Source: Faecalicatena fissicatena (lineage in GTDB: Bacteria; Bacillota; Clostridia; Lachnospirales; Lachnospiraceae). From it: a DNA stretch of 32,000 nucleotides. This document shows, one piece after another, positions 1 through 25,570 of this stretch. The number at the start of each line of letters is the position of its first letter. The stretch's first letter is position 1. The position numbers and the translations under genes are program-made. The stretch is from the NCBI GenBank assembly GCA_001028025.1, contig LDAQ01000067.1, positions 128 through 32,127 of the forward strand. The letters are read 5' to 3'. The notes beneath the pieces were generated by a model. That model was not told the origin of the DNA and made no database searches. It was given only the letters and a program-made list of their open reading frames with translations.

Positions 1-70
1 GGATTCATGATCTGGAATTATAATTCAGCCGGAACAATTGCCGATACAGCATTAACAGCATCCGCAGCTC

Positions 71-443
71 CCGCCCGGATGCACCCAGCCTGTCCGGAAT
101 GCGGGACGCATGTCCGAAGCGGGAGCCCTACGGCAGCCCGGGAAACTTTCGTGCCCCTTTCCGGGGGCATAGAGAGCGCCGCTGGACTCACTTGGTAAAA
201 ACCGCATCGTATGGGGAGGCTAAAATCTGCTTCCGAAGCAGATTTTAAGACGGCCTGAGCCGCGCAATTCATCAGAATTGCACGTTGAATGCCGTCGATG
301 CCTCCCCATACGATGCGGTTTTTGCCTAGTGAGTCCCGGCAAACGGAAAGCCCCCGGAAAGGGGCACGAAAGTTTCCCGGGCTGCCGCAGGGCTCCCGCT
401 TCGGACATGCGTCCCACGTTCCGGACAGGCGTCCCTCCGCCCC
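71..443 (+). repeat. Long-hairpin element, copy A: imperfect arms of about 140 bp (88-229 / 299-430), branched apex 230-298, conserved 5' tail 74-90 and C-rich 3' tail 431-443
   Basis: The reverse complement of 88-229 matches 299-430 apart from a few mismatches and one internal loop. It shares conserved blocks with copy C, including a near-identical 43-nt apical block (252-294 vs 19011-19053, 1 difference). GC-rich compared with its flanks. It ends at the stop codon of the minus-strand thioredoxin gene. Confidence 0.85.
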
Positions 444-754
444 TACACCCTCATCATATCAACCAGTACTTTTTTTGCCAGCACCCCGCTTGCCGCCGAC
501 ACCGGCTTTCCTCCCTTAAATACAACAAATGTCGGGACAATCTCAACCTCAAATTCTGCCGCCAGGACCTCGCTTTCATCAATCTCAATCTGACAAACTT
601 TGACCCTGCCGTTATATTCTCTGGCGATCTCGTCCACAACATCTTCCATCATGGCGCACTTCCCGCACCAGACAGCAAAAAACTCAACCAATACAGGCGT
701 TTCTGACTTCAGAACCTCCTGTTGGTAATTTTTCGCAGTCACTCTGATTTTCAT
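443..754 (-). CDS. trxA: Thioredoxin-family protein with a WCGKC active site
   Basis: The ORF translation has a thioredoxin-fold signature (VLVEFFAVWCGKCAMM...VPTFVVFKGGK). ATG at 754 has AGGTG 6 nt upstream. The ORF track begins at an upstream GTG (763), which lies inside that SD-like sequence. Confidence 0.85.
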   Translation of the reverse strand: MKIRVTAKNYQQEVLKSETPVLVEFFAVWCGKCAMMEDVVDEIAREYNGRVKVCQIEIDESEVLAAEFEVEIVPTFVVFKGGKPVSAASGVLAKKVLVDMMRV

Positions 755-1047: not shown

Positions 1048-1698
1048 TTATTTTCTCTTAGCTATCATCTTGTTGATCGGGTTCCCCTTGGCGGAAAACT
1101 TTTCCTCATACTCTGTCATTACATTTCCTTTGCTCATCAGCTCATGATGATGCAGATCATATGTATAATGCTCCAGGGTCCACGATGATTCCCTTACCTG
1201 TTCCAGCGAAAAGTTAAACAGCTCGGTATTATCTGTCTTAAACTCCAGTACCCCTCCATGGATAAGAATCTGTTCGTAACGATCAAGATATTCCCGTGAT
1301 GTCAGCCTTCTCTTCTCATGTCGTGCTTTTGGCCATGGGTCCGAAAAGTTCAGGTAAATCTTCTGCACTTCATTCTGCGCAAAAACGTCTGCCACATCGC
1401 GGGCATCCATGCAAACAAAACGAACGTTTTTCAACATATTAAACTCTTCCGTATCGAACTTTTCCACGGCCCTCAGCAGCACGCTGGTATACCTCTCAAT
1501 GCCGACAAAATTAATGTCCGGATTCAGGGACGCCATCTTTAGCAGAAACCGGCCCTTACCCATGCCGATTTCAATATGGATAGGATTCGTATTGCCAAAT
1601 ACCTGACGCCAGCAGCCTTTCTGTGCTTCCGGACGTTTAATCACTGCCGGATGGTTCTGAATTGTTCCATCCGCGCGCGGTATGTTCCTTAGTCTCAT
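1048..1698 (-). CDS. trmB: tRNA (guanine-N7)-methyltransferase
   Basis: The 216-aa translation is typical of TrmB (IEIGMGKGRFL SAM-binding motif, NFSDPWPK). A strong RBS (AAGGAG) lies upstream of the ATG. Confidence 0.9.
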   Translation of the reverse strand: MRLRNIPRADGTIQNHPAVIKRPEAQKGCWRQVFGNTNPIHIEIGMGKGRFLLKMASLNPDINFVGIERYTSVLLRAVEKFDTEEFNMLKNVRFVCMDARDVADVFAQNEVQKIYLNFSDPWPKARHEKRRLTSREYLDRYEQILIHGGVLEFKTDNTELFNFSLEQVRESSWTLEHYTYDLHHHELMSKGNVMTEYEEKFSAKGNPINKMIAKRK

Positions 1699-3443: not shown

Positions 3444-5386
3444 TAGTGAAAATGAAATTTGTCAATATCTCCGGTCCAAGGGATGATATTGACCGTGTAA
3501 CAGACCTCTATCTTTCCAGATATGAGATTCAGCTGGAATCCGCTCTTTCTGAGCTTAAGACAGTTGATAATCTGAGGCCTTTCGTGGAGCTCAACCCCTA
3601 CCGGGATGCTCTGAACAAGGCCATACAATTTGCCGGATTTCTTCAGAATGCAGATGAAGTTAAACCAGACGAATCCATGGGCCTGAATGATATGTTTGAC
3701 ATTGTTCGCAGATCAAATATCAGCTATATGGACATGCAGGACCAGAAAGAGAAACTGAAACGAAGTATTGAGGATCTTCGGAAAAGACAGCAGATTATTG
3801 CCCCCTTCAGGCCTCTGGAATGTGAATTAAATGAAGTCCTTCAGTATAAATATATAGCCTACCGGTTCGGCCGGATTGCCGTAGAGTATTACCACAAGAT
3901 GGAAAAGTACCTGATGGATGACCTTGGAGCTATTTTCGTGGAGGGCGAACGTGACGAGAGCTATGTGTACGGGGCATACTTCGTATCTCCCGGTGAAGCT
4001 CAGAAGGCAGATGCTGTTTTCCGATCCCTGCATTTTGAAAAAATAGATCTGCCCCCGGATTTCCAGGGAACACCCGCTGATGAATACCGTAAGCTGGTCC
4101 GCGAGATCTACAATATGGGGCAGAAGATTGAAGAGCTGGACAACAAGGCCGGAGAAATGCTCGCCAAACGGGCGCCTCAGCTGATTGCAGCCAGAAACCG
4201 GCTGGAAGAGCTGGCCAATAACTTTGATGTCCGCAAAATGGCCGCCCGCATGGAGGACAAGAAAGAAGATTATTACATCCTGTGCGGCTGGATGGCCGAG
4301 GACGATATTGAAATGTTCCTGGATGAAATCAAGGACGATGAGAAGATCTTTGTTGTTGTCGAGGATGACCACGATACTTACTTCGGAGAGCCTCCGACCA
4401 AACTGGAGAATCCGAAGATATTCAAGCCTTTTGAGATGTTTGTTCAGATGTACGGCCTTCCATCTCATAATGAGATGGACCCAACCGTATTTGTGGGGCT
4501 GACCTACTCCTTTATATTCGGCGTCATGTTCGGAGATGTGGGACAGGGGCTTCTGCTTTTAATCGGAGGCGGTCTGATCTACCACTTCAAGAAGGCACCA
4601 CTGGCCGGCATTATAGCAACGGCAGGAATCTTCTCTGCCATTTTCGGATTCATGTTTGGCAGTATCTTTGGATTTGAAGATGTCATCCCCCCATTGTGGC
4701 TGAGGCCCATTGACCATATGACTACGCTTCCTTTCATCGGAAAGCTGAATACCGTCTTTATCGTTGCCGTTGCTTTTGGTATGGGAGTCATCCTGGTGGC
4801 CATGATCCTGCACATCATTAATGCTGTGCGGTCGCACGATCTGGAGAATATATGGTTTGACTCAAATGGAGCCGCCGGATTTGTATTTTATCTCTCCGTG
4901 GTGGTCACAGTCGTGTTATTCATGACAGGACATAAGACTCCGGGCGGAATCATTCTGGCCGTAATGTTCGGTATTCCGCTGTTGTTAATATTATTTAAGG
5001 AACCCATCACAAGAAAGATCCAAAAACGAGCGGATACCATGGAGGCAAGCGCCGGGATGTTCCTTGTCCAGGGATTTTTCGAATTGTTTGAGACTTTGCT
5101 CAGCTATTTTTCCAATACGCTGTCCTTTGTCCGTATCGGAGCTTTCGCCGTAAGCCATGCTGCTATTATGGAAGTTGTCCTGCTCCTGTCGGGCGCGGAA
5201 AGCGGCTCACCCAACTGGGTAGTAATCGTTCTGGGCAATTTATTCGTATGCGGTTTTGAGGGGCTGATCGTGGGTATCCAGGTATTGCGTCTGGAATACT
5301 ACGAGATGTTCAGCCGTTTTTATAAAGGAAGCGGAAGAGCTTTTGATCCATATACTAAAAAATCCAAAAATACCAAGAAGAAGTAG
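3440..5386 (+). CDS. ntpI: V/A-type ATPase subunit I (a-subunit, stator/proton channel)
   Basis: 648 aa with a soluble N-terminal half and a polytopic C-terminal half. It contains the conserved LSFVRIGAFAVSH region that carries the essential Arg. Confidence 0.9.
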   Translation: MIVKMKFVNISGPRDDIDRVTDLYLSRYEIQLESALSELKTVDNLRPFVELNPYRDALNKAIQFAGFLQNADEVKPDESMGLNDMFDIVRRSNISYMDMQDQKEKLKRSIEDLRKRQQIIAPFRPLECELNEVLQYKYIAYRFGRIAVEYYHKMEKYLMDDLGAIFVEGERDESYVYGAYFVSPGEAQKADAVFRSLHFEKIDLPPDFQGTPADEYRKLVREIYNMGQKIEELDNKAGEMLAKRAPQLIAARNRLEELANNFDVRKMAARMEDKKEDYYILCGWMAEDDIEMFLDEIKDDEKIFVVVEDDHDTYFGEPPTKLENPKIFKPFEMFVQMYGLPSHNEMDPTVFVGLTYSFIFGVMFGDVGQGLLLLIGGGLIYHFKKAPLAGIIATAGIFSAIFGFMFGSIFGFEDVIPPLWLRPIDHMTTLPFIGKLNTVFIVAVAFGMGVILVAMILHIINAVRSHDLENIWFDSNGAAGFVFYLSVVVTVVLFMTGHKTPGGIILAVMFGIPLLLILFKEPITRKIQKRADTMEASAGMFLVQGFFELFETLLSYFSNTLSFVRIGAFAVSHAAIMEVVLLLSGAESGSPNWVVIVLGNLFVCGFEGLIVGIQVLRLEYYEMFSRFYKGSGRAFDPYTKKSKNTKKK

Positions 5387-6149: not shown

Positions 6150-6776
6150 TTGAAACAAATGGATATTAAAAAAGAAGGAGGTACCCTCTTGACTCTGGAA
6201 GAAAAATTTGCACACCTGCAGTCTACCTCCATGGAGGAAGCAAGGGCTGAGGGCAATGCTATCATAGACACTTACCGTGAGGCGCTGGAAAAAGTTTTAG
6301 AAGATCACAAAGAAGAGGCGCTCCGCCAGTCCGAGACCCGTATCAAGGCTGAAACAGTCAGCGCCAAACAGCAGCTGAACCAGGCCATGGCCAAATCACA
6401 GCTGGAATTGAAGCGTATGCAGGGTAAGGTCCAGCAGGATTTAAAAGATAAAATCTTTGCAGAGACCGTTGCGTTAGTTCATGATTTTATGAAAACAGAA
6501 GCGTACGAAGACTATCTTATAAAATGCATCCGCAAGGCAATCAATTTTGCTGACGGAGAAGCAATGGTCATATATATCAACCCCTCTGATGAGAACCGCC
6601 GTTCCGATCTGGAGGACGCTTTAAGTACAAGGCTTACGATCAGCGCCGAAGATTTTATCGGCGGTATGCGTGCGGTCATCAGAAGCCGTAATATTCTGAT
6701 CGACAATTCATTTAAGACAGCACTTCGGAATGAATATGATAAGTTTGTCTTTTTAGGAGGTGACGGCATTGCTTAA
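6150..6776 (+). CDS. ntpE: V/A-type ATPase subunit E (peripheral stalk)
   Basis: A charged helical N-terminus with a globular C-terminus, in operon context. The start is ambiguous. TTG at 6189 has the best SD (GAAGGAGG 7 nt upstream) and would give about 195 aa. Confidence 0.8.
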   Translation: MKQMDIKKEGGTLLTLEEKFAHLQSTSMEEARAEGNAIIDTYREALEKVLEDHKEEALRQSETRIKAETVSAKQQLNQAMAKSQLELKRMQGKVQQDLKDKIFAETVALVHDFMKTEAYEDYLIKCIRKAINFADGEAMVIYINPSDENRRSDLEDALSTRLTISAEDFIGGMRAVIRSRNILIDNSFKTALRNEYDKFVFLGGDGIA

Positions 6777-8552: not shown

Positions 8553-9920
8553 ATGTCAATAGAATATTTGGGACTCAGCAGTATTAACGGCCCTCTGATA
8601 GCACTGGAGGGCATCCAGGATGCCTTTTTCGATGAAATCGTAGAATTCGTCGTGGACGGCACAGAACGCAAAATTGGACGTATCGTAGAGATTTATGAGG
8701 ACAAAGCTGTCATACAGGTATTCGAAGGTTCCGAAAATATGTCCCTGAAGAATACCCATACCCGCCTTACCGGCCATCCGATGGAAATCGCTCTGTCCCC
8801 GGATATGCTGGGACGTACCTTCAACGGGATCGGGCAGCCTATCGATGATCTGGGTCCGATTACATCCACATTAAAGAGAGATGTAAACGGACTCCCGCTG
8901 AACCCTGTCATGCGGGAATATCCGCGAAACTACATCCACACAGGAATCTCCGCCATCGACGGGCTGACCACTCTGATCCGGGGACAGAAGCTTCCGATAT
9001 TTTCAGGAAACGGACTTCCCCACGACCAGCTGGCGGCTCAGATTGTGAAGCAGGCTTCCCTGGGCGAGAATTCCGAGGAACAATTTGCCATTGTATTTGC
9101 CGCCATGGGCGTCAAGCATGACGTTGCCGACTTCTTCAGGCGTACCTTTGAAGAAAGCGGTGTTGCAGACCACGTAGCCATGTTCCTGAACCTGGCAAAC
9201 GACCCGGTCGTAGAACGTCTGATCACGCCAAAAGTAGCGCTCACCGTAGCAGAATACCTGGCCTTCGAGCAAAACATGCATATCCTGGTTATCCTGACCG
9301 ATATGACCTCTTTTGCCGAAGCCATGCGTGAAGTCTCCTCCTCCAAAGGAGAGATTCCCAGCCGTAAAGGCTTTCCCGGATACCTCTACAGCGAACTTGC
9401 CACCATCTATGAGCGGGCCGGCATCGTGCAGGGTGTGAACGGTTCTGTAACCCAGCTGCCGATCCTGACCATGCCCAACGATGACATCACCCATCCGATC
9501 CCCGACCTGACCGGATATATCACGGAGGGCCAGATCGTACTGGAGAGAGAGCTGCACGGACAGTCCATCTACCCGCCGATCAACATTCTGCCGTCCCTGT
9601 CCCGTCTGATGAAAGACGGCATCGGAGAGGGCTACACAAGAGAAGACCACCAGGACCTTGCAAACCAGCTCTTCTCCGCCTACGCCAAGGTAGGAGACGC
9701 CCGAAACCTGGCTTCCGTCATTGGTGAGGATGAACTTTCCCCCATTGATAAAAAATATCTGGAATTCGGAAAAGCATTTGAAGAAAGATACATCGGCCAG
9801 GGGCAGAACGAAAACCGCAGCATGGAAGAGACTCTCAACCTGGGCTGGGAACTGCTCGGGCTGCTACCGAGAGAAGAACTCGACCGCGTCGATACCAAGA
9901 TACTCGACAAATATTATTAG
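8553..9920 (+). CDS. ntpB: V/A-type ATPase subunit B
   Basis: 455 aa with typical non-catalytic B-subunit sequence ([27 protein letters not shown]). Confidence 0.95.
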
Positions 9921-9954
9921 GGGTCAGACCCCTTTGCCAAAGGGGTCTGACCCC
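9920..9954. repeat. Perfect 35-bp palindrome GGGGTCAGACCCCTTTG-C-CAAAGGGGTCTGACCCC
   Basis: Read directly from the sequence. It starts on the last base of the ntpB stop codon and no T-tract follows it. The same half-site recurs at 25506-25570. Confidence 0.9.
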
Positions 9955-10010
9955 AATGAGCACCGTATTCAGAATATTCTGACTAATCAAACGTAAAAAG
10001 GAGGAGTTTC

Positions 10011-13778: not shown

Positions 13779-16700
13779 TTAAATATTAAAGTCCTTTTCC
13801 GAAAGGATAATTCTGTCCGCATCATCCGTATTTTTTCCAAATACACGTTTTACCAATTTCTTTGCTGATGCCTTCTGAGAATGCTCCATAGCCTCATCCA
13901 TGACTTCCTTCACTTCCGCAACTGTCACGGCATGGTCCTCTCTCTGAAGCGCGTCAATCCTGCTGTAGAGTGCAAGAATTCCCATCTCATCGATGCGGTA
14001 TCCATTTTCCTGAGCATATGTCTGGCCGAATGTTACAAGTTCATCATTAATGAAAATCGGTACTTCCAGACGGCTCGTAAACTTCCTGCGGAATTCCCTG
14101 TTGGAGGAAAGCAGTCTGTCCAGAGGCTTCCTCTGCTCTTCAAGAACAACCATCATCTCGCCTGTATCTCTTTCCATCGCCTTATTCAGCCTTGCCACGG
14201 TCTTTTCGTTCAGCTTTCCGGCCTTCTCGATAATCAGAGCGCCGCCGTATAATTTATCAAAAATATCGCTGATCTTTTTCTTATTCAGAGAGTCGCCCGT
14301 TACAATTGCAACCTTTCCCTGCCTGATATTCCTCTGCTTCTGGATTGCTTTGACAACATCCACAGCCAGAACAGTCTTACCATTTCCTTTATTACCAATG
14401 ATAAGGAGGTTGCCAGTTTTGGAAGTGCCGTTCCGGTTCGTGCAGTTATTGTCCTGCTCAAGTACATCCACAAGCTGCTCACTCATACCGCGTACCGGCA
14501 CAAAGTATGAGAATAACTTTTTCTGCTCATCTGTAAGCCCGGCCCGTGTCCCGATACCGCTCTGTGTCTCCAGATCGTATCTGCCATGGACAACAAATCC
14601 CGTGTCTGACATGGAAAGCGCATCTGAGATCTCGTTCAGCGGAAGAGGTGCTGTCTTACCTGTTGCAATCAGCTTTGCCGTTTCCTTACGGCTCAACGGA
14701 GTTGTAGCCGACATGATATCTATATCATCATCTTCATCCGGGATCTCTCTATCGTCAAATTCTTCCACTTGTTCCGGGTTCGGTCGGAACTCTTCCTCGA
14801 AACCAGCTGCTATATCTTCTATATCCTCGGCAGGCTCCTCGGTATCATATTCAGCAAGTTCCTCTTCCTCATACTCATCGTAGTAATCCTGGTCATATTC
14901 CTCTTCATATGATTCTTCCTCGATCTCATCGTAGTCTTCCTCATATGCTTCGCCATCATCATACTCATCTTCCGGATATGTTTCTTCTTCGTATTCCTCT
15001 TCACCATATCCGTCATCATAGAATTCTTCTTCAGCTTCTTCATATTCTGCCGTAAATTCTTCCTCAGCTTCCAGTTGAGACTCTTTTATATCATCGTACT
15101 CTTCATCATAAGATTCTTCTGCATCGCCGTACTCCTCGTCATAAGAATCCTCATACTCGTCTGCATAATCATCTTCATATACTTCTTCGTCTGACGCTTG
15201 AGCATATTCGTCTACTTCCTCCGGAAGGTCATCAATGAAACCTTCCAAATCTTCTTCAATACCATCGTCTGAAGCATCAAGGAACTCCGCGATATCATCA
15301 ATTCTGAGCTGCTGCGTTATTGCCCCCATATTTTCACGAGGTTCTTCATCCCTTCTGGCAGGTGTCCTCACAGTTTTGGGTTCCTCAGGCAGCACTCCTT
15401 CAATCTCGTCAATCAATCTCTGAATATCCGGCGGCAGTATCGGCTCCGCACTCTTTTTCTTTTCTTCCATCTTGTCCTCTTCTGCCGGTTCATCCTGCTC
15501 GTCATGCCCTAATCCCATTAAAATGTCTTCAATGCTGAGCTGACCTTGTATCTGGTCGTCATCCACCGGCTTTTTATTCTCCTGCTTTATATTATCTGCT
15601 GCGGCTGCATCTTCTATTCTCTCTGGTACCTCTTCGAAAGGTTCCTCCTGCAGCTCTTCTTTACTGTCTGCCAACTCTTCTTCCTCTGGCAGTTCCTCTT
15701 CTGATTCTGCTAGAGGTTCTTCCACAAACGTCTCCTCTTCGGAATCCACTATCTGTTCTGCCCCGTTATCTTCCAGCAGTTCTTCCACGTACAATAACTC
15801 TTTTGAATCTTCTGTCACTTCTTCCTCGTACAGTTCTTCTGCGGAATCTTCTGCCGGTTCTTCCTCTGGCAGTTCTTCTTCGATATCTTCCAGGGATTCT
15901 TCCCCGTACAATTCCTCTTCAGTGTCTTCTGCCGGTTCTTCCTCTGACAGTTCTTCTTCGATATCTTCCAGGGATTCTTCCTCGTACAGTTCCTCTTCAG
16001 TGTCTTCTGCTGTTTCTTCCTCCTCTTCTTCCAGCGGCTCCTCGTCCCACAATTCTTCCTCTGTTGCTTCAAGTACTTCATTGAGAAGTTCGCCGTCAAT
16101 ACCTTCTGCCTCTATTGCAGATTCTGAAAATTCCTCTTCCATATCTTCCGGGAGTTCCTCAGAAAATACCTCACCGATAATTTCTTCCACTTCCTCCAGT
16201 GATTCACCTTCCAGAAGTTCTGTCTCTTCCACAGTCACCTCTTCTGCAGGTTCTTCCGCTGTTTCCGGGGACAGTTCTTCATCCGGGATCTCATCCTCAA
16301 GAGGTTCAGCTTTCAACTCTTCCAAATCTTTATCAAATTGAATTTCTCTTTTTTTCTTTCCTGCATATTCATTTACAAGTTCCAGATCTATCACGGATTC
16401 GATTTCTTCTATTGCTACTTCCAGCTCAGGGATCTCTTCTTCGTCAAGCTCTTCCTCTTCCGTTTCTATTTTTTCATCTTTATTTTTAGGCCGCAAAAGA
16501 CTCTGCAGGGCATCCTCCAGCTTCATCCTGCTGCCGATTCCTTTTTGCTCCAGTTTTTGTACGGTCTCATCTACTGGCAAGTCATCCGGCTCACTATCAG
16601 CCTCCGGAGTCTCCTTCGCTTCTTCTGCCAAAGGCTCCTCTTTCAATGGAGTCTCTTCATCTGAATCTTCTTTAGCAGCGGCTTCTGACTGATCCGTATC

Positions 16701-17441
16701 TGTTTCTTCCGGTGAATAATCATCCCCAGAATCATCACCGTCCAGCTCTTCTGCAGCAGCAGCTTTTCTAGCCTGATATTCTGTCAAATCCGGAAGCTCT
16801 TCCGTCTCGGATTCAATCTTCTCATACCTGTGGTCATACTTTTCCTGCTGTGAAGGTGTCAGCTGTTTATACTGCATCTTAAGTTCCATCGCTTTAAATA
16901 CGAACTTTCCTTCACTGAACCAGAGGATCAAATCGTCACACTCCTCCAGACACTCGGCAGTCATACCGGCTTCCTGATATAATCTTGCCAGTTCATATGC
17001 CCATTCTTCAATGTATTCTGCCTTCTTAAACTCCTCCAGCGCTTCAATCTGCTGTTCAACCGGAGCTCTTCTGGCCCTTAATATCTTATATCGCAAAATA
17101 TGCTGGTTTGGATCCTTAGGAGCAACCTGCATAAAATCGTCATAATAGTCGATGGCTTCATCAACATTTCCTGTTTTAAGTGCAAGAGCGCATAAACGAT
17201 AGATAACCTTCCTGCTGCCTTCCGCACGATGATAAGCAATATTCAGAACCTCGTAACTCTTCTGATAGTCCCCGTTTCTCTCATATATGTCACTGACATT
17301 TGTCAGCATAGTGGCATTTCTGACTCTCTTCCAATCGATGGTATCCGCAATCTCGGCCGCTTTATTATATGCACCGCTTTCCATAAGTTCAAGCATCTGT
17401 TCTGTCTTTAACTTATATTCGTACTTGTCCACTGCACTCAC
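13779..17441 (-). CDS. Giant TPR / hyper-acidic low-complexity / CbbX-SpoVK-like AAA+ protein with an atypical Walker B
   Basis: The N-terminal ~200 aa are TPR-like helical repeats. The central ~700 aa are dominated by E/D with internal repeats. The C-terminal ~300 aa align by eye to the SpoVK/CbbX/EccA AAA+ module: Walker A GNKGNGKT (14373-14396), GGALIIEKAG in place of GGVLFIDEA (14223-14237), and NREFRRKFTSRLEVPIF resembling NPGLRSRF. The start may instead be GTG 17432 (GAGGTG 6 nt upstream). Confidence 0.85.
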   Translation of the reverse strand: MSAVDKYEYKLKTEQMLELMESGAYNKAAEIADTIDWKRVRNATMLTNVSDIYERNGDYQKSYEVLNIAYHRAEGSRKVIYRLCALALKTGNVDEAIDYYDDFMQVAPKDPNQHILRYKILRARRAPVEQQIEALEEFKKAEYIEEWAYELARLYQEAGMTAECLEECDDLILWFSEGKFVFKAMELKMQYKQLTPSQQEKYDHRYEKIESETEELPDLTEYQARKAAAAEELDGDDSGDDYSPEETDTDQSEAAAKEDSDEETPLKEEPLAEEAKETPEADSEPDDLPVDETVQKLEQKGIGSRMKLEDALQSLLRPKNKDEKIETEEEELDEEEIPELEVAIEEIESVIDLELVNEYAGKKKREIQFDKDLEELKAEPLEDEIPDEELSPETAEEPAEEVTVEETELLEGESLEEVEEIIGEVFSEELPEDMEEEFSESAIEAEGIDGELLNEVLEATEEELWDEEPLEEEEEETAEDTEEELYEEESLEDIEEELSEEEPAEDTEEELYGEESLEDIEEELPEEEPAEDSAEELYEEEVTEDSKELLYVEELLEDNGAEQIVDSEEETFVEEPLAESEEELPEEEELADSKEELQEEPFEEVPERIEDAAAADNIKQENKKPVDDDQIQGQLSIEDILMGLGHDEQDEPAEEDKMEEKKKSAEPILPPDIQRLIDEIEGVLPEEPKTVRTPARRDEEPRENMGAITQQLRIDDIAEFLDASDDGIEEDLEGFIDDLPEEVDEYAQASDEEVYEDDYADEYEDSYDEEYGDAEESYDEEYDDIKESQLEAEEEFTAEYEEAEEEFYDDGYGEEEYEEETYPEDEYDDGEAYEEDYDEIEEESYEEEYDQDYYDEYEEEELAEYDTEEPAEDIEDIAAGFEEEFRPNPEQVEEFDDREIPDEDDDIDIMSATTPLSRKETAKLIATGKTAPLPLNEISDALSMSDTGFVVHGRYDLETQSGIGTRAGLTDEQKKLFSYFVPVRGMSEQLVDVLEQDNNCTNRNGTSKTGNLLIIGNKGNGKTVLAVDVVKAIQKQRNIRQGKVAIVTGDSLNKKKISDIFDKLYGGALIIEKAGKLNEKTVARLNKAMERDTGEMMVVLEEQRKPLDRLLSSNREFRRKFTSRLEVPIFINDELVTFGQTYAQENGYRIDEMGILALYSRIDALQREDHAVTVAEVKEVMDEAMEHSQKASAKKLVKRVFGKNTDDADRIILSEKDFNI
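15821..16030 (-). repeat. 78-bp (26-aa) in-frame tandem repeat, about 2.7 copies, inside the acidic region
   Basis: Units start at 15821, 15899 and 15977 and are near-identical. They encode ...EELYEEESLEDIEEELSEEEPAEDT... Confidence 0.9.
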
Positions 17442-17520
17442 CTCGTTAATATAATATTATTTATATCTTTTATCCGGCATACGCCCGTTTATACGCACAT
17501 GTGCAGATAATTCTGTCCTT

Positions 17521-17549
17521 AGTTTACCATAAGCACTTCCCAATGTCAA
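17521..17549 (-). promoter_or_regulatory. Candidate sigma-A promoter for the 1220-aa gene
   Basis: Minus strand: TTGACA (17544-17549), 17-nt spacer, TAAACT (17521-17526), about 80 nt upstream of the start codon. Confidence 0.5.
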
Positions 17550-17586
17550 AAAAATGCATCCTCAATTGACATTGAAGATGCATTTT
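17545..17586 (-). terminator. Intrinsic terminator downstream of the decayed ORF
   Basis: A 16-bp stem (17551-17566 / 17571-17586, 1 mismatch that is G-U on the minus strand) with loop TGAC, followed by T7 on the minus strand. Confidence 0.65.
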
Positions 17587-17618
17587 AACACTTATTTAAT
17601 TTTCTCATTCTATATATT

Positions 17619-18160
17619 TTATAAATCGGAGGAATCTTTTGATTTTCGTTCCTGTAAGACCTTTACCGCTTTGTTTATTGATGCTTCAATCTGTTCACTA
17701 AGACTTGCTTACTAAACCTCCTGTCCTTCAATATACAAATCGATTATATAACTAGAATCCAATCGCTCTCGCTCCTGGTACCGATTCATAATAGTAAAGT
17801 ATAACCTTAGGTTATTCATCCTATAGCCTTTCAGTTCCCGCAGTATTGTATAACAATATTCCAGCAGCCTATTAAGCTATTTCTTCTATAACTATGTACA
17901 CTTTTTATGAAATGATATCCTGTTAATGTTTCTTTACACATATCAGGAACTCTGTTATACGTGGTATCTATATTCAATACGTTTGCAAATGTTAAATCTT
18001 TGATTTTAATCCAGTTTCCGAACTCTCCGATTAAATCCTTTTCATTCTTCTTTTGTACTGGATTCCTTTATCTTATATCAGTAAAGGTCTCTTCTTCACA
18101 GGAACTTCCATTTGCCGTACCACTAACATATTGAACTATAAATGACGATACATTGTCCAT
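17619..18160 (-). pseudogene. Decayed AT-rich gene of about 180 codons, broken by in-frame stops and a frameshift
   Basis: Hand translation: AAGGAGG RBS, then MDNVSSFIVQYVSGTANGSSCEEETFTDIR*RNPVQKKNEKDLIGEFGNWIKIKDLTFANVLNIDTTYNRVPDMCKETLTGYHFIKSVHSYRRNSLIGCWNIVIQYCGN*, then after a frame change MNNLRLYFTIMNRYQERERLDSSYIIDLYIEGQEV**ASLSEQIEASINKAVKVLQERKSKDSSDL*. I do not recognise the family. Confidence 0.5.
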
Positions 18161-18406
18161 TGGACCTTTGCCTCCTTGATCAAATATTTTAATCTAATTG
18201 AACATTTTTATTATGTTCGTTCAGATGATTTCCTTTGAGATATCTTTTTCTTTTTTATTTATCTCGTTTGGATTAGTTAGATAATATCATACAAGCTATC
18301 ATTTGTCAACGCACTTTATTCTTTTTTAATAAATAAATATATAATTGTCCAAATTACACATATTTATCAGATTATTTCGAAAGTCAGAATTTTTTGGTAG
18401 TTGGTA

Positions 18407-18681
18407 TGGGGCCGCTGTGTGGAATTGGAACAGGCCTCTCCAGAATGCGGGATCAGGGCGTAAGTGCCGCTTCATCAAAATCGGAGCCGGCATGGTGAAC
18501 ACCGCGGACACTTGCGAGAATTCTGATGAATTCTCACTGCGGGTCTGCTTGTTTACAGGCCTTGTGGGCCTGTAAACAGTTCACATGCCGGCTCCGATTT
18601 TGATGAAGCGGCACTAACACCCCGATCCAGCATCCTGGAGATGCCTGTTCCAATTCCGCACAGCTGGGTGCATCCGGGCGG
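18407..18681 (-). repeat. Long-hairpin element, copy B (inverted orientation, divergent): arms 18413-18499 / 18569-18664
   Basis: Arms of about 90 bp are complementary with about 8 mismatches. The conserved tail CCGCCCGGATGCACCCAGC is present as its reverse complement at 18663-18681. The apex holds GAGAATT-CTGATG-AATTCTC (18516-18535), equivalent to the A/C apical hairpin with compensatory stem changes. Confidence 0.8.
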
Positions 18682-18850
18682 AAAAAATTTGACTATCAGG
18701 GGGGATAATGACGGGGGCAGCGAATTGAGTCGTTTCACTTGAGCGGAATGCCTCCGGCACTCTTATAATAATAATTACTGGGGGCATACCTATATGGGAT
18801 TCCAGCCCAATCCGCCGCTTCCGGATCCTCCCACCGTACGGTTTTCCCTG

Positions 18851-19186
18851 CGCCCGGATGCACCCAGCCAGTCTGGAGCGGGAGTTCTGCCGGCGGGCGG
18901 GGGGATTTTCCGTGCGCTTTCTGAATGCATAGAGAGCACTTACAAACACTTAAGAAAAACCATGCCGGATGGAAAGGATAAAATTTGCTCACCAAAGCAA
19001 ATTTTAAGGTGGCCTGAGCCGCGCAATTCATCAGAATTGCACGGTGAATGCCGCCGGGCCTTTCCATCCGGCATGGTTTTTCTTAAGTGTTTGTTAGTAA
19101 ACGGACCGCATACAGAAAGCGCACGGAAAATCCCCCCGCCCGCCGGCAGAACTCCCGCTCCAGACTGGCGCCCCCTCCTCGTCCCC
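18851..19186 (+). repeat. Long-hairpin element, copy C: arms 18867-18977 / 19059-19169, including a perfect 57-bp inverted repeat
   Basis: 18867-18923 is the exact reverse complement of 19113-19169. It carries the conserved 5' tail, internal loop (18927-18937 / 19099-19105) and apex (19011-19053) shared with copy A. It ends 7 nt from the stop codon of the minus-strand histidine kinase. Confidence 0.9.
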
Positions 19187-19193
19187 TCGCTTC

Positions 19194-20534
19194 CTAAATC
19201 TTAACTTGTACGGTGTAGATCCCCCCTTCATTAAGTACATACAGTTCTCCCCCATGGCGTTCCACCATTTTTCCTACGCTTTTGAGTCCGATCCGGTTGC
19301 TGTCGGTCTCATTTACTTCTTTTTTAACTGTATTTATCAGAGTTATTTTCATCTGCTGTTTTTCTGTTTTGAAGGTCAGACTGACAGGGATTTTCTTGTC
19401 TCCATATTTTAATATATTTGAAAACAGGTTGTTGAATATTCTCTTGAGCATTGTTGCATCGCCGATGACCGTTCCCCGGCTTTCTTCCATTGTCACTTCC
19501 GCCTCAAATCCGGCAAGCTTAAGGAAGTCCAGGTTTTCCTGCAGGATTTCCAGGACGGCCTGTACTGGTACCTTCTCCATGTTAACTTCCTCTGTTTCTT
19601 CAAATACAAGCGCATACTCGAACATTTTATCTGTCATCTCTTTGATGTCACTTGTTTTCTGAAGACATCTGGAAAGATACTCCTCTTCCATTGACTCCGG
19701 TATCTTTTTCAGCTGCAGTACTTCCAGATATCCGTTGAGAATCGTCAGCGGTGTCCTCAGATCATGGGATATGGCCGTGATCAGGTCCTGATTGGCCTTC
19801 CGGCTTTCTTCCTCCTGCCGGATGTTCTCATCCAGCGCAGTACGGAGCTTGTCCAGCTCTTCAGCCAGAATGCCGATTTCATCCTCCCCGCAGTCTGGAA
19901 CCGGATGCTTTAAATCGCCTGAGGCCATCTGCAGCACCTCATCCTTCAGGCAGAGAACCTGTTTCATTCTTCGGTTGATAAACAGCAGATTTATTGCCAG
20001 GAATACACCGACACTGATCAGCACGCTGATTAAAAGGTATGGATAAACCATTTTCATGGCATGATAGGAGTAAATCATCACACTGTATGTTCCATTACGG
20101 AATTCTATTGCGACCTCATCGTAGTTTTCAATTTCTCCTGATGAGACTTTGTATCCTGCATCCAATAGGCTGCCGTATACTACCCGTTCTGTAATCTCAG
20201 GATATGCACCGGCCCTGTATAGGCCTTTTCCTCCGATTTCATAAATATATATTCCGGTATATTCATCCTTGGGAGCAAAAAATGACTTGATTTCTGCCTG
20301 TTCTTCCTTATTTTCTTCCCGTTCCGGGACATCATAATATTTTGCATTCACTTCGAGCTCTTCAATCAGTGCCTGTTCATCCCAGGTGATCGAAGGGAAT
20401 CTGCACAGAAATTTCCATACATTGCCCATGTTTGACCAGACAAACCAAAAAAGAAAAAGACTTACGATCGCAGAAGCCAGCATAAGTATAGAAAGCTTCG
20501 TGCGTATTTTCCAGCTTTTTACTGCGGACTTCAT
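19194..20534 (-). CDS. Sensor histidine kinase (2 TM helices with an extracytoplasmic loop, HAMP, HisKA, HATPase_c)
   Basis: H-box ISHDLRTPLTIL, N-box FNNLFSNILKYG, G-box-like IGLKSVGKMVERHGG. The ATG at 20534 lies 4 nt after the response-regulator stop. The longer track ORF (to 20687) overlaps that gene and was not used. Confidence 0.9.
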   Translation of the reverse strand: MKSAVKSWKIRTKLSILMLASAIVSLFLFWFVWSNMGNVWKFLCRFPSITWDEQALIEELEVNAKYYDVPEREENKEEQAEIKSFFAPKDEYTGIYIYEIGGKGLYRAGAYPEITERVVYGSLLDAGYKVSSGEIENYDEVAIEFRNGTYSVMIYSYHAMKMVYPYLLISVLISVGVFLAINLLFINRRMKQVLCLKDEVLQMASGDLKHPVPDCGEDEIGILAEELDKLRTALDENIRQEEESRKANQDLITAISHDLRTPLTILNGYLEVLQLKKIPESMEEEYLSRCLQKTSDIKEMTDKMFEYALVFEETEEVNMEKVPVQAVLEILQENLDFLKLAGFEAEVTMEESRGTVIGDATMLKRIFNNLFSNILKYGDKKIPVSLTFKTEKQQMKITLINTVKKEVNETDSNRIGLKSVGKMVERHGGELYVLNEGGIYTVQVKI

Positions 20535-25503: not shown

Positions 25504-25505
25504 TT

Positions 25506-25570
25506 CAAAGGGGTCAGACCCCTTTGCCGGAGGGGACAGTCCCCTCTGCAAAAGGGTCTGACCCCTTTTC
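25506..25570. terminator. Compound palindrome between convergent genes, probably a bidirectional terminator and a GGGGTCAGACCCC-family repeat
   Basis: CAAAGGGGTCAGACCCCTTTG ... GAGGGGACAGTCCCCTC ... CAAAAGGGTCTGACCCCTTTTC. The outer arms are complementary, the inner hairpin has a 7-bp stem, and T-rich runs lie on both sides. It sits between the GT2 stop (25503) and the metG stop (25600). Confidence 0.7.

Follow-up and report, generated by a model that had tools for sequence, protein, structure and literature searches.

The 32,000-nucleotide (nt) stretch of Faecalicatena fissicatena DNA analysed here (contig LDAQ01000067.1; hereafter the window) carries housekeeping genes, namely those for thioredoxin, TrmB, the V-type ATPase operon, an AraC-type regulator, GlgB, a 1220-amino-acid (aa) TPR/acidic-repeat protein, a histidine kinase and response regulator, YfhO/GtrA, a GT2 glycosyltransferase, MetG and NadABC. 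No transposase, recombinase or reverse transcriptase is found within these 32 kilobases (kb). The window also holds three copies of one polar element, designated A (71-445, + strand), B (18400-18681, - strand) and C (18850-19193, + strand). Copy B is a genuine, diverged type-2 member of a clade-restricted family of polar, giant-hairpin intergenic repeats from Faecalicatena and Muricomes (Lachnospiraceae); the family is undescribed.

The key feature of the element is the order of its parts on one strand, in which an AT-rich upstream region is followed by a C-rich, G-poor leader, the tail CCGCCCGGATGCACCCAGC, a long stem, two hairpins and a GCG-CCCC trailer. The stem comprises 110-150 almost perfect base pairs (bp) and is capped by two small hairpins, the second of which displays a CATCAG loop; the repeat units of the family span 250-350 bases. 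Exact matches to the 18-mer CGCCCGGATGCACCCAGC occur three times in the window (72-89, +; 18663-18680, -; 18851-18868, +), against a chance expectation of 0.00, and each precedes, on its own strand, a nearly perfect inverted repeat of great length. The sequence AATTCATCAGAATT likewise recurs exactly at 266-279 (+), 18519-18532 (-) and 19025-19038 (+). Folded as single strands, A, B and C reach -306, -203.5 and -254 kcal/mol, with z scores of -28, -21 and -24, respectively, relative to dinucleotide shuffles, and the apex of all three is Y-shaped, consisting of a copy-specific hairpin 1 and of hairpin 2 with its CATCAG loop (Table 1).

Table 1. Positions of the parts of copies A, B and C and of the B-C spacer within the window
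Feature	Position	Strand	Basis or remark
A leader (TATAAT 19-24, box GCATCCG 59-65) and tail (71-89)	1-89	+	
A hairpin body	88-430	+	inverted repeats I1 and I5; fold
A stem	88-168/350-430	+	96% complementary
A inner stem	184-220/300-336	+	
A hairpin 1	221-247	+	
A hairpin 2 (CATCAG loop 270-275)	249-296	+	
A C-rich 3′ tail	431-445	+	overlaps stop codon (443-445) of convergent thioredoxin gene
B C-rich 3′ tail (GCGGCCCCATAC...), family motif GCG(N)CCCC	18400-18413	-	motif after stem in every copy
B 3′ arm of long stem	18414-18494	-	inverted repeat I2, 81 nt, 91% complementary; fold
B hairpin 2, GAGAATT-CATCAG-AATTCTC (loop 18523-18528)	18505-18548	-	fold and motif match
B hairpin 1, copy-specific	18550-18578	-	sequence and fold
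B 5′ arm of long stem	18584-18664	-	inverted repeat I2, 81 nt
B invariant 5′ tail CCGCCCGGATGCACCCAGC	18663-18681	-	exact match
Spacer: two pyrimidine-rich leaders (box ATCCG in that of C), AT-rich centre, TATAAT 18764-18769	18682-18849	.	sequence
C 5′ tail (GCGCCCGGATGCACCCAGC)	18850-18868	+	exact match
C hairpin body (internal loops ATAGAGAGC and AAACGGACC)	18867-19169	+	inverted repeats I3 and I4, 98% complementary; fold
C outer stem	18867-18928/19108-19169	+	
C inner stem	18938-18977/19059-19098	+	
C hairpin 1	18979-19006	+	
C hairpin 2 (CATCAG loop 19029-19034)	19008-19055	+	
C C-rich 3′ tail	19170-19193	+	ends at stop codon (19194-19196) of convergent histidine-kinase gene

An earlier, sequence-only reading of this DNA had taken B for a divergent homologue that keeps the tail, the terminal helix and the CATCAG hairpin, and the shared exact motifs, inverted repeat I2 and the fold of B bear this out. 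The terminal helix of B is formed by TGTGCGGA and TCCACACA, with one C·A mismatch, and that of A by TGTCCGGA and TCCGGACA. The apical stem around the CATCAG loop reads GAGAATT/AATTCTC in B, as compared with GCAATT/AATTGC in A and C, and the hairpin-2 stem covaries among the copies, with AATT, TAAT, AAAT, AATG and AAGC variants. Two further differences that had been described are read directly from the sequence: B lacks the internal loop GCATAGAGAGC/AAACGGA, and its hairpin 1 is unrelated in sequence to hairpin 1 of A and C.

Similar copies can be found elsewhere, within a narrow group of bacteria. A scan with the tail of one genome for each of 185,579 species produced 67 matches, three of them with a hairpin behind the tail, at L027 and L053 (F. 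contorta JCM 6483) and L067 (F. contorta 2789STDY5834876), where L numbers designate fetched loci and contigs. The corresponding metagenome scan gave 61 matches and one real copy, L097. In viral contigs, the tail, a degenerate form of it and the apical module of type 1 found only chance matches in GC-rich DNA, none with a hairpin; BLAST searches in distant mode found no match to A among plasmids or to B-C among phages; and ~75 kb of DNA from outgroup species held no comparable hairpin. Fuzzy and BLAST searches of the fetched loci added the variant-tail copies L053c and L067b (damaged orthologue L053b), as well as a short orthologue of A in Muricomes sp. OA1 and F. contorta JCM 6483. Across the scans of genomes, metagenomes and viral contigs, relatives are limited to F. 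contorta/Muricomes genomes and one metagenome contig, and the known copies number at least five per genome. For comparison, TrmB of the window (1048-1698) is at most 87% identical to named proteins of F. contorta and Muricomes sp. OA1. Full-text literature searches on the motifs and on Faecalicatena repeats returned nothing relevant.

The copies fall into two types. A, C, L053c, L067b and a partial copy, D, for which a chimeric contig is the sole source, belong to type 1 and have the internal loops GCATAGAGAGC and AAACGG and a hairpin 2 built as CCTGAGCCGCG...GGTGAATG; B, L097, L027 and L053a make up type 2. The closest relative of B is L097, with 69% identity over 219 nt. In general, the copies are old paralogues with ~70% identity. 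The contig that contains D (L090, 1560-1974) joins the 5′ arm of this fourth copy to the 3′ arm of C, possibly through recombination or as an assembly chimera.

The leader upstream of the tail is pyrimidine-rich over ~45-70 nt, with AT-rich DNA beyond it, and the box CCATCCG occurs in 7 of 10 leaders, some 44-50 nt before the tail. On the tail-first strand, C accounts for 40% and G for 18% of leader and tail together, and for 37% and 9%, respectively, of the 30 nt that follow the stem; thus, the single-stranded flanks are C-rich and G-poor in a strand-specific manner. The tail core CGGATG is the reverse complement of both the leader box and the hairpin-2 loop, which reads CATCAG in most copies and CATCCGG in L097. 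Box and tail of A make a 7-bp hairpin, and the L097 loop shows full complementarity to the tail. As a general pairing of box and tail core, however, this was rejected: most copies have a box complementary to the core, but L053c and OA1 carry uncompensated tail variants and there is no covariation, and so CGGATG/CATCCG is treated merely as a repeated motif.

Several other candidate features were set aside. A tandem recurrence of the tail motif, with a period of ~41-42 nt along the 5′ arm and leader, was not detected by Tandem Repeats Finder, and the few 12-13/19 matches in a scan with a threshold of 11/19 (C at -33, L027 at +41, hairpin 2 on the reverse strand) lie within the range of shuffled sequences. 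A K-turn or box C/D motif fits the hairpin-2 internal loop loosely in type-1 copies and not at all in type 2. Inspection ruled out a sigma-54, tRNA-like or coding nature of the tail, the coding frames differing between copies.

The two arms of the long stem evolve in concert. Standard pairs fill 99.3% of cells in the type-1 core of four paralogues, where changes on both sides affect 40 of 72 pairs, whereas column shuffles give 17.4 ± 2.8 two-sided pairs (0 of 500 reaching the observed number) and slid controls 2-10. Between B and L097, 72 pairs are unchanged, 4 are changed on one side and 25 on both, which upholds the earlier reading of B as a homologue with compensatory stem changes; other pairwise comparisons are alike, with two-sided changes far above one-sided ones and about half of transversion type. 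RNAalifold returned no structure for hairpin 2 in eight copies because the MAFFT alignment supplied to it was out of register. Over nine copies, G·U pairs number 26 on the tail-first strand and 35 on the opposite strand among ~1,100 pairs, or 2-3% with no strand bias, and B alone has 4 G·U pairs and 2 A·C mismatches on the tail-first strand versus 4 and 3 on the other. The hint of an RNA sense that had been drawn from three of four mismatches in B being G-U-compatible is therefore not supported.

Such covariation could have two causes, namely selection for Watson-Crick pairing (on both strands or in DNA) or arm-to-arm correction of the palindrome by template switching, and by itself it cannot tell one from the other. 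Three observations argue for function over a neutral palindrome. With ~30% divergence of the stem, the asymmetric internal loops, three-way apex and loops are still preserved; the tail is identical in 6 of 9 distinct copies, from at least three genomes and across species with 87%-identical TrmB; and the flanks are C-rich in a strand-specific way. Among strains of the species, the variation of hairpin A, through one-sided changes, equals or exceeds that of its mostly coding flanks (1.2-2.6% versus 0.06-0.7%), and the leader and tail (1-89) are unchanged in the three strains that cover this part.

In the window, the tails of B and C are opposed across 168 nt, with TATAAT on the midpoint. The opposed arrangement around an AT-rich, TATAAT-containing centre is thus as first described, although the hexamer lies 80-82 nt from each tail, not 83. 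Two other conspecific contigs span the locus, and both carry the same pair. A second pair resides at an unrelated locus of F. contorta JCM 6483, between convergent spoVAC and permease genes, where L053c (type 1, -) and L053a (type 2, +) have their tails 189 nt apart and the -10-like TAAAAT (3800-3805) sits on the midpoint (3801). Both pairs consist of one type-1 and one type-2 copy, and homology between their spacers is found mainly in the type-1 leader. Given this independent pair, head-to-head pairing recurs and is not unique to the window locus, as the sequence-only reading had allowed that it might be; A, L027, L097, L067b and the short A orthologue of Muricomes sp. OA1 are solitary. The leader side of a copy faces AT-rich DNA or another leader and never adjoins a gene end, with the exception of an IS30-like open reading frame (ORF) upstream of the L097 copy.

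The B-C spacer resembles the invertons of gut bacteria, in which short inverted repeats likewise surround an AT-rich segment with a -10-like box (170-190 bp in the elements described here). Conceivably, the perfect 18-bp inverted repeat that flanks the 168-bp segment could make it an invertible promoter switch acting between the 18-19-bp inverted tails and driving the 1220-aa gene or the histidine-kinase gene. This is highly improbable. The window and the three contigs that extend into the spacer (L087, L088 and L096, a small sampling) all show the same orientation, no invertase or other recombinase gene lies within the 32 kb, and the tails of the L053 pair match at just 14 of 19 positions. 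The same tail is moreover found on solitary copies, and the repeats are part of larger hairpins that also occur singly.

The position of the spacer hexamers also raises the prospect that each element is the gene for a large noncoding RNA (ncRNA) of ~400-450 nt in which a C-rich 5′ leader and a C-rich 3′ end frame a rod-like hairpin; it would be transcribed from the AT-rich region upstream of the leader, and the centre of each pair would serve as a divergent promoter, as the sequence-only reading had suggested. We consider this rather unlikely. It would account for a leader side that always faces AT-rich, -10-like sequence, for -10-like hexamers at the exact midpoint of both spacers, for the location of the L053 pair between two convergent genes, where a promoter is otherwise unneeded, and for the conservation of unpaired motifs (tail, internal loops, CATCAG loop). 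Small RNAs of Firmicutes have C-rich seed regions, which the single-stranded segments of the element resemble in composition. However, a consensus promoter scan found no promoter in the B-C spacer, where TTGAGC-19-TATAAT fails on spacer length, and one modest site (9/12) in the spacer of the L053 pair; the -35 hexamers match poorly, their distances vary, and the promoter-like site of A is not kept in its OA1 orthologue. There is no terminator after the element, the scarcity of G·U pairs and their lack of strand bias are unusual for a selected RNA, and the OA1 orthologue retains the tails with a hairpin of just 75 nt.

At the other end of the element, a convergent gene has its stop codon 8-24 nt from the 3′ tail at five independent loci, the neighbours being thioredoxin (A and its orthologue), the histidine kinase (C), spoVAC (L053c), the permease (L053a) and an oxidoreductase (L097). 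Two of these sites can be compared among relatives. At the thioredoxin site, A is present in all conspecific strains; Muricomes sp. OA1 and F. contorta JCM 6483 have a copy in the same position and orientation, with both tails (CCGCCCGGATACACCAGC and GCGTCCCCC) and a hairpin of ~75 nt; and Faecalicatena sp. AGMB00832 and the species of L165 have a plain bidirectional terminator. At the histidine-kinase site, a GGGGTCAGACCC-type terminator alone stands between the kinase stop codon and the downstream AT-rich region in L162, L163 and L210/L211, and in the window the same place is taken by ~790 bp consisting of C, the spacer and B. The promoter, small ORF and large-protein gene of L163 and L211 are syntenic with the window, and L164 has a 100-nt hairpin followed by a T-tract. 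From these two loci it follows that the elements occupy places where relatives have terminators, and the B-C block is specific to the lineage of the window. Two candidate remnants of terminators carry no weight because of their shortness: C (AAACGGACCGCA) shares 12 nt with the L162 kinase terminator, and the OA1 apex shares 9 nt with the thioredoxin terminator.

Copies decay by deletion, and the losses are imprecise. L067 retains just the 3′ tail and 9 nt of L053c, L067a is without hairpin 2, L096 (1-192) has lost most of C through a microhomology deletion, and in L053b (L053 366-595) the 3′ half is replaced. Many short-read contigs end inside elements.

Among known repeats, those nearest in kind are REP/REPIN, BOX and ERIC, although the defining properties of each are missing. 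REP/BIME elements and the RAYT-mobilised REPINs of Proteobacteria are likewise palindromes located outside genes, at gene ends, whose hairpins have a short conserved motif at the 5′ foot, and they share with the present family inverted doublets, long vertical inheritance and, probably, effects on the 3′ ends of messenger RNA (mRNA). They differ in size, the units described here spanning 250-350 nt as compared with 20-40 nt for REP and ~100 nt for REPINs, and the Faecalicatena elements are set apart by low copy number, strong divergence, a Firmicute host and polar C-rich flanks. The 5′-foot motif is thus present, whereas a 20-40-nt palindrome in tens to hundreds of near-identical copies is not, and no RAYT (Y1 transposase) gene was found in the window or the fetched loci. 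BOX of Streptococcus pneumoniae, ERIC, Correia, RUP and the enterococcal stem-loop repeats are, like the present family, modular, noncoding, long stem-loops of variable length near gene ends, and a comparable gain and loss of modules is evident in L067a and in the OA1 orthologue, whose 75-nt hairpin corresponds to 340 nt in A. They have no sequence similarity to the family, which in addition has asymmetric ends without terminal inverted repeats or target duplications and much longer, nearly perfect stems whose arms covary between copies.

Other classes are likewise excluded by their defining properties. Intrinsic (bidirectional) terminators also lie directly after stop codons, and relatives have ordinary ones at both orthologous sites examined; the elements differ in having a stem 5-10 times longer, conserved tails and apical hairpins, and flanks that read GCGCCCCC and GCTGGGTG in place of a U-tract directly after the hairpin. 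A terminator scan of the outer boundaries of A, B and C on both strands found none, the only sites being incidental internal ones. The attC sites and other recombination sites that fold as single strands have in common with the family a variable stem with conserved fold and unpaired features, Watson-Crick-only pairing and a position downstream of genes, but the elements are 2-5 times longer than the 57-141 nt of attC, lack the R″/L″-L′/R′ arrangement of GTTRRRY core sites, integrase and cassette array, and have housekeeping genes as neighbours. Miniature inverted-repeat transposable elements do not fit, as the ends are asymmetric (CCGCCCGGATGCACCCAGC versus GCGCCCCC) and no duplication is seen at the boundaries; nor does the msr-msd organization of retrons, as the window contains no reverse transcriptase and the 5′ and 3′ tails are both C-rich and not mutually complementary. 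No Rfam family matched at gathering thresholds, and the sole long match at E≤10, a plant microRNA precursor with 80 bits against a gathering score of 211, was dismissed as a generic long-hairpin artefact far below that score.

The likeness to REPINs and attC sites bears on another idea, in which the elements are a selfish, non-autonomous form of mobile DNA that is recognised when folded into a single-stranded hairpin. An enzyme whose gene lies elsewhere in the genome, such as an HUH/Y1 transposase or a recombinase, would recognise or cleave the conserved tail at the stem's foot, so that the family would be a Firmicute analog of REPINs with merely incidental effects on transcription. We regard this as possible but on the unlikely side. 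Copies are scattered over unrelated loci and differ in presence between related species; their asymmetric ends and the conserved motif 5′ of the hairpin foot are as in REP elements; their complementarity is Watson-Crick-only and without strand bias; terminator positions are common targets of small mobile elements; and the elements break assemblies, one contig being chimeric between copies. Yet the ~70% identity of the copies implies no recent burst of copying, and neither a target-site duplication nor a clean empty site was found, the losses being imprecise. A transposase or recombinase gene is absent from the window and from the vicinity of every copy, apart from the unrelated IS30-like ORF, and the orthology of the thioredoxin-site copy between species indicates vertical inheritance.

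The reading that we tentatively prefer, at less than even confidence, is that the family represents a REP/BOX-like polar repeat that may act as a folded-strand, orientation-dependent transcription barrier in place of ordinary terminators. The element would work as a folded single strand, most probably transcribed from its AT-rich side, and the succession of C-rich leader, hairpin and C-rich trailer could load Rho or block the polymerase in the manner of the rutA-boxB-rutB arrangement of lambda tR1. The tR1 terminator has such a rut-hairpin-rut layout. Similarly to tR1, the element has C-rich, G-poor single-stranded segments on both sides of a hairpin on one strand; the likeness is compositional only, and the hairpin is enormous by comparison. 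Rut sites require an unstructured stretch of RNA, C-rich, G-poor and at least ~70 nt long, ahead of the release sites, and in base composition alone the leader plus tail and the trailer agree with this. Such a barrier might keep transcripts from entering the next promoter or from running into the neighbouring gene in the antisense direction, and the hairpin on the other strand might cap the 3′ end of the convergent mRNA, the element thereby standing in for a lost terminator. A head-to-head pair would then constitute two back-to-back barriers that seal off a short promoter-like island, and the invariant tail would imply a sequence-specific partner, be it a protein or an enzyme that once copied the element. 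The ncRNA and mobile-DNA readings are live alternatives that are compatible with a barrier role, and none of the three excludes the others.

Several points weigh against the barrier reading. No U-tract exists at either outer boundary, and so the element is not a canonical intrinsic terminator on either strand, and Rho dependence we infer purely from base composition. A tail invariant at 19 of 19 positions and perfect stems of 130 bp far exceed what a rut site or roadblock needs. B, L027 and L067b lie upstream of co-oriented genes, not at convergent gene ends, and the natural deletion variants suggest that individual copies are dispensable. Finally, scarce G·U pairs, the absence of strand bias and the many transversion-type double changes fit arm correction at the level of DNA as well as they fit selection on RNA.

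A more far-reaching proposal, which we hold to be doubtful, is that the elements are the cis part of an undescribed Clostridia system recognised as a folded single strand. This could be a Firmicute counterpart of the REPIN-RAYT or attC type acting on single-stranded DNA, in which the 19-nt tail and the CATC-containing loop and leader box are bound by a dedicated enzyme, or else a new class of ~400-nt, rod-like RNAs with C-rich seed arms expressed from the divergent promoters of the pairs. If a dedicated partner protein does exist, it would represent a new system of nucleic-acid recognition. REP and BOX families are well studied in Proteobacteria and streptococci and hardly at all in gut Lachnospiraceae, and the giant-hairpin family presents long palindromes kept at orthologous sites across species, with arms that evolve in concert and invariant tails. 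As the elements took over terminator positions, they likely shape transcript ends and the insulation of neighbouring genes. Their systematic breakage of short-read assemblies matters for metagenome binning, and they matter for annotation because spurious ORFs of about 130 aa are called inside them.

Specifically, gene callers predict such ORFs of 130-136 aa within hairpins at window positions 7-198 and 18794-19204, at L077 5279-5680, at L087 337-747 and elsewhere; Pfam has no match for them, and the 136-aa ORF over C, used as a protein query, found itself alone. The IS30-like element that adjoins the leader of the L097 copy (L097 2020-3728) contains an ORF with an HTH_38 domain, has the end sequence GACCAGACTGCATTTACTTTGATAAAGTTGCATTAACCCTGAAATTCAACC and shares no sequence with the repeats. 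It is also present upstream of A, ~170 nt before window position 1, in L079 (identical to the window), L080 and L084, and not in L077 or L078.

A second repeat family, based on the 13-nt palindrome GGGGTCAGACCCC, forms inverted doublets in the gap between the V-ATPase B and D genes (9919-9959) and after the GT2 gene (25505-25566). In relatives, the same unit constitutes the histidine-kinase terminator (L162 ~6360-6410; L163 ~6333-6370), at the place where the window has the B-C pair.

A conserved leader of ~840 nt, without an Rfam match, lies upstream of the 1220-aa gene (17442-18310, - strand). It displays a strong promoter (TTGACA-17-TATTAT, 18309-18281), a terminator-like hairpin, a second promoter (17549-17521) and a conserved small ORF of 30 aa with the ribosome-binding site AAGGAGG (MDNVSSFIVQYVSGTANGSSCEEETFTDIR); synteny of the leader extends to L163, and gene calls for the small ORF also exist in L210/L211. 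The 1220-aa protein itself (13779-17441, -) has TPR-like repeats at its N terminus and a long Asp/Glu-rich region, which is built of 39-nt (13-aa) tandem repeats (15643-16056).

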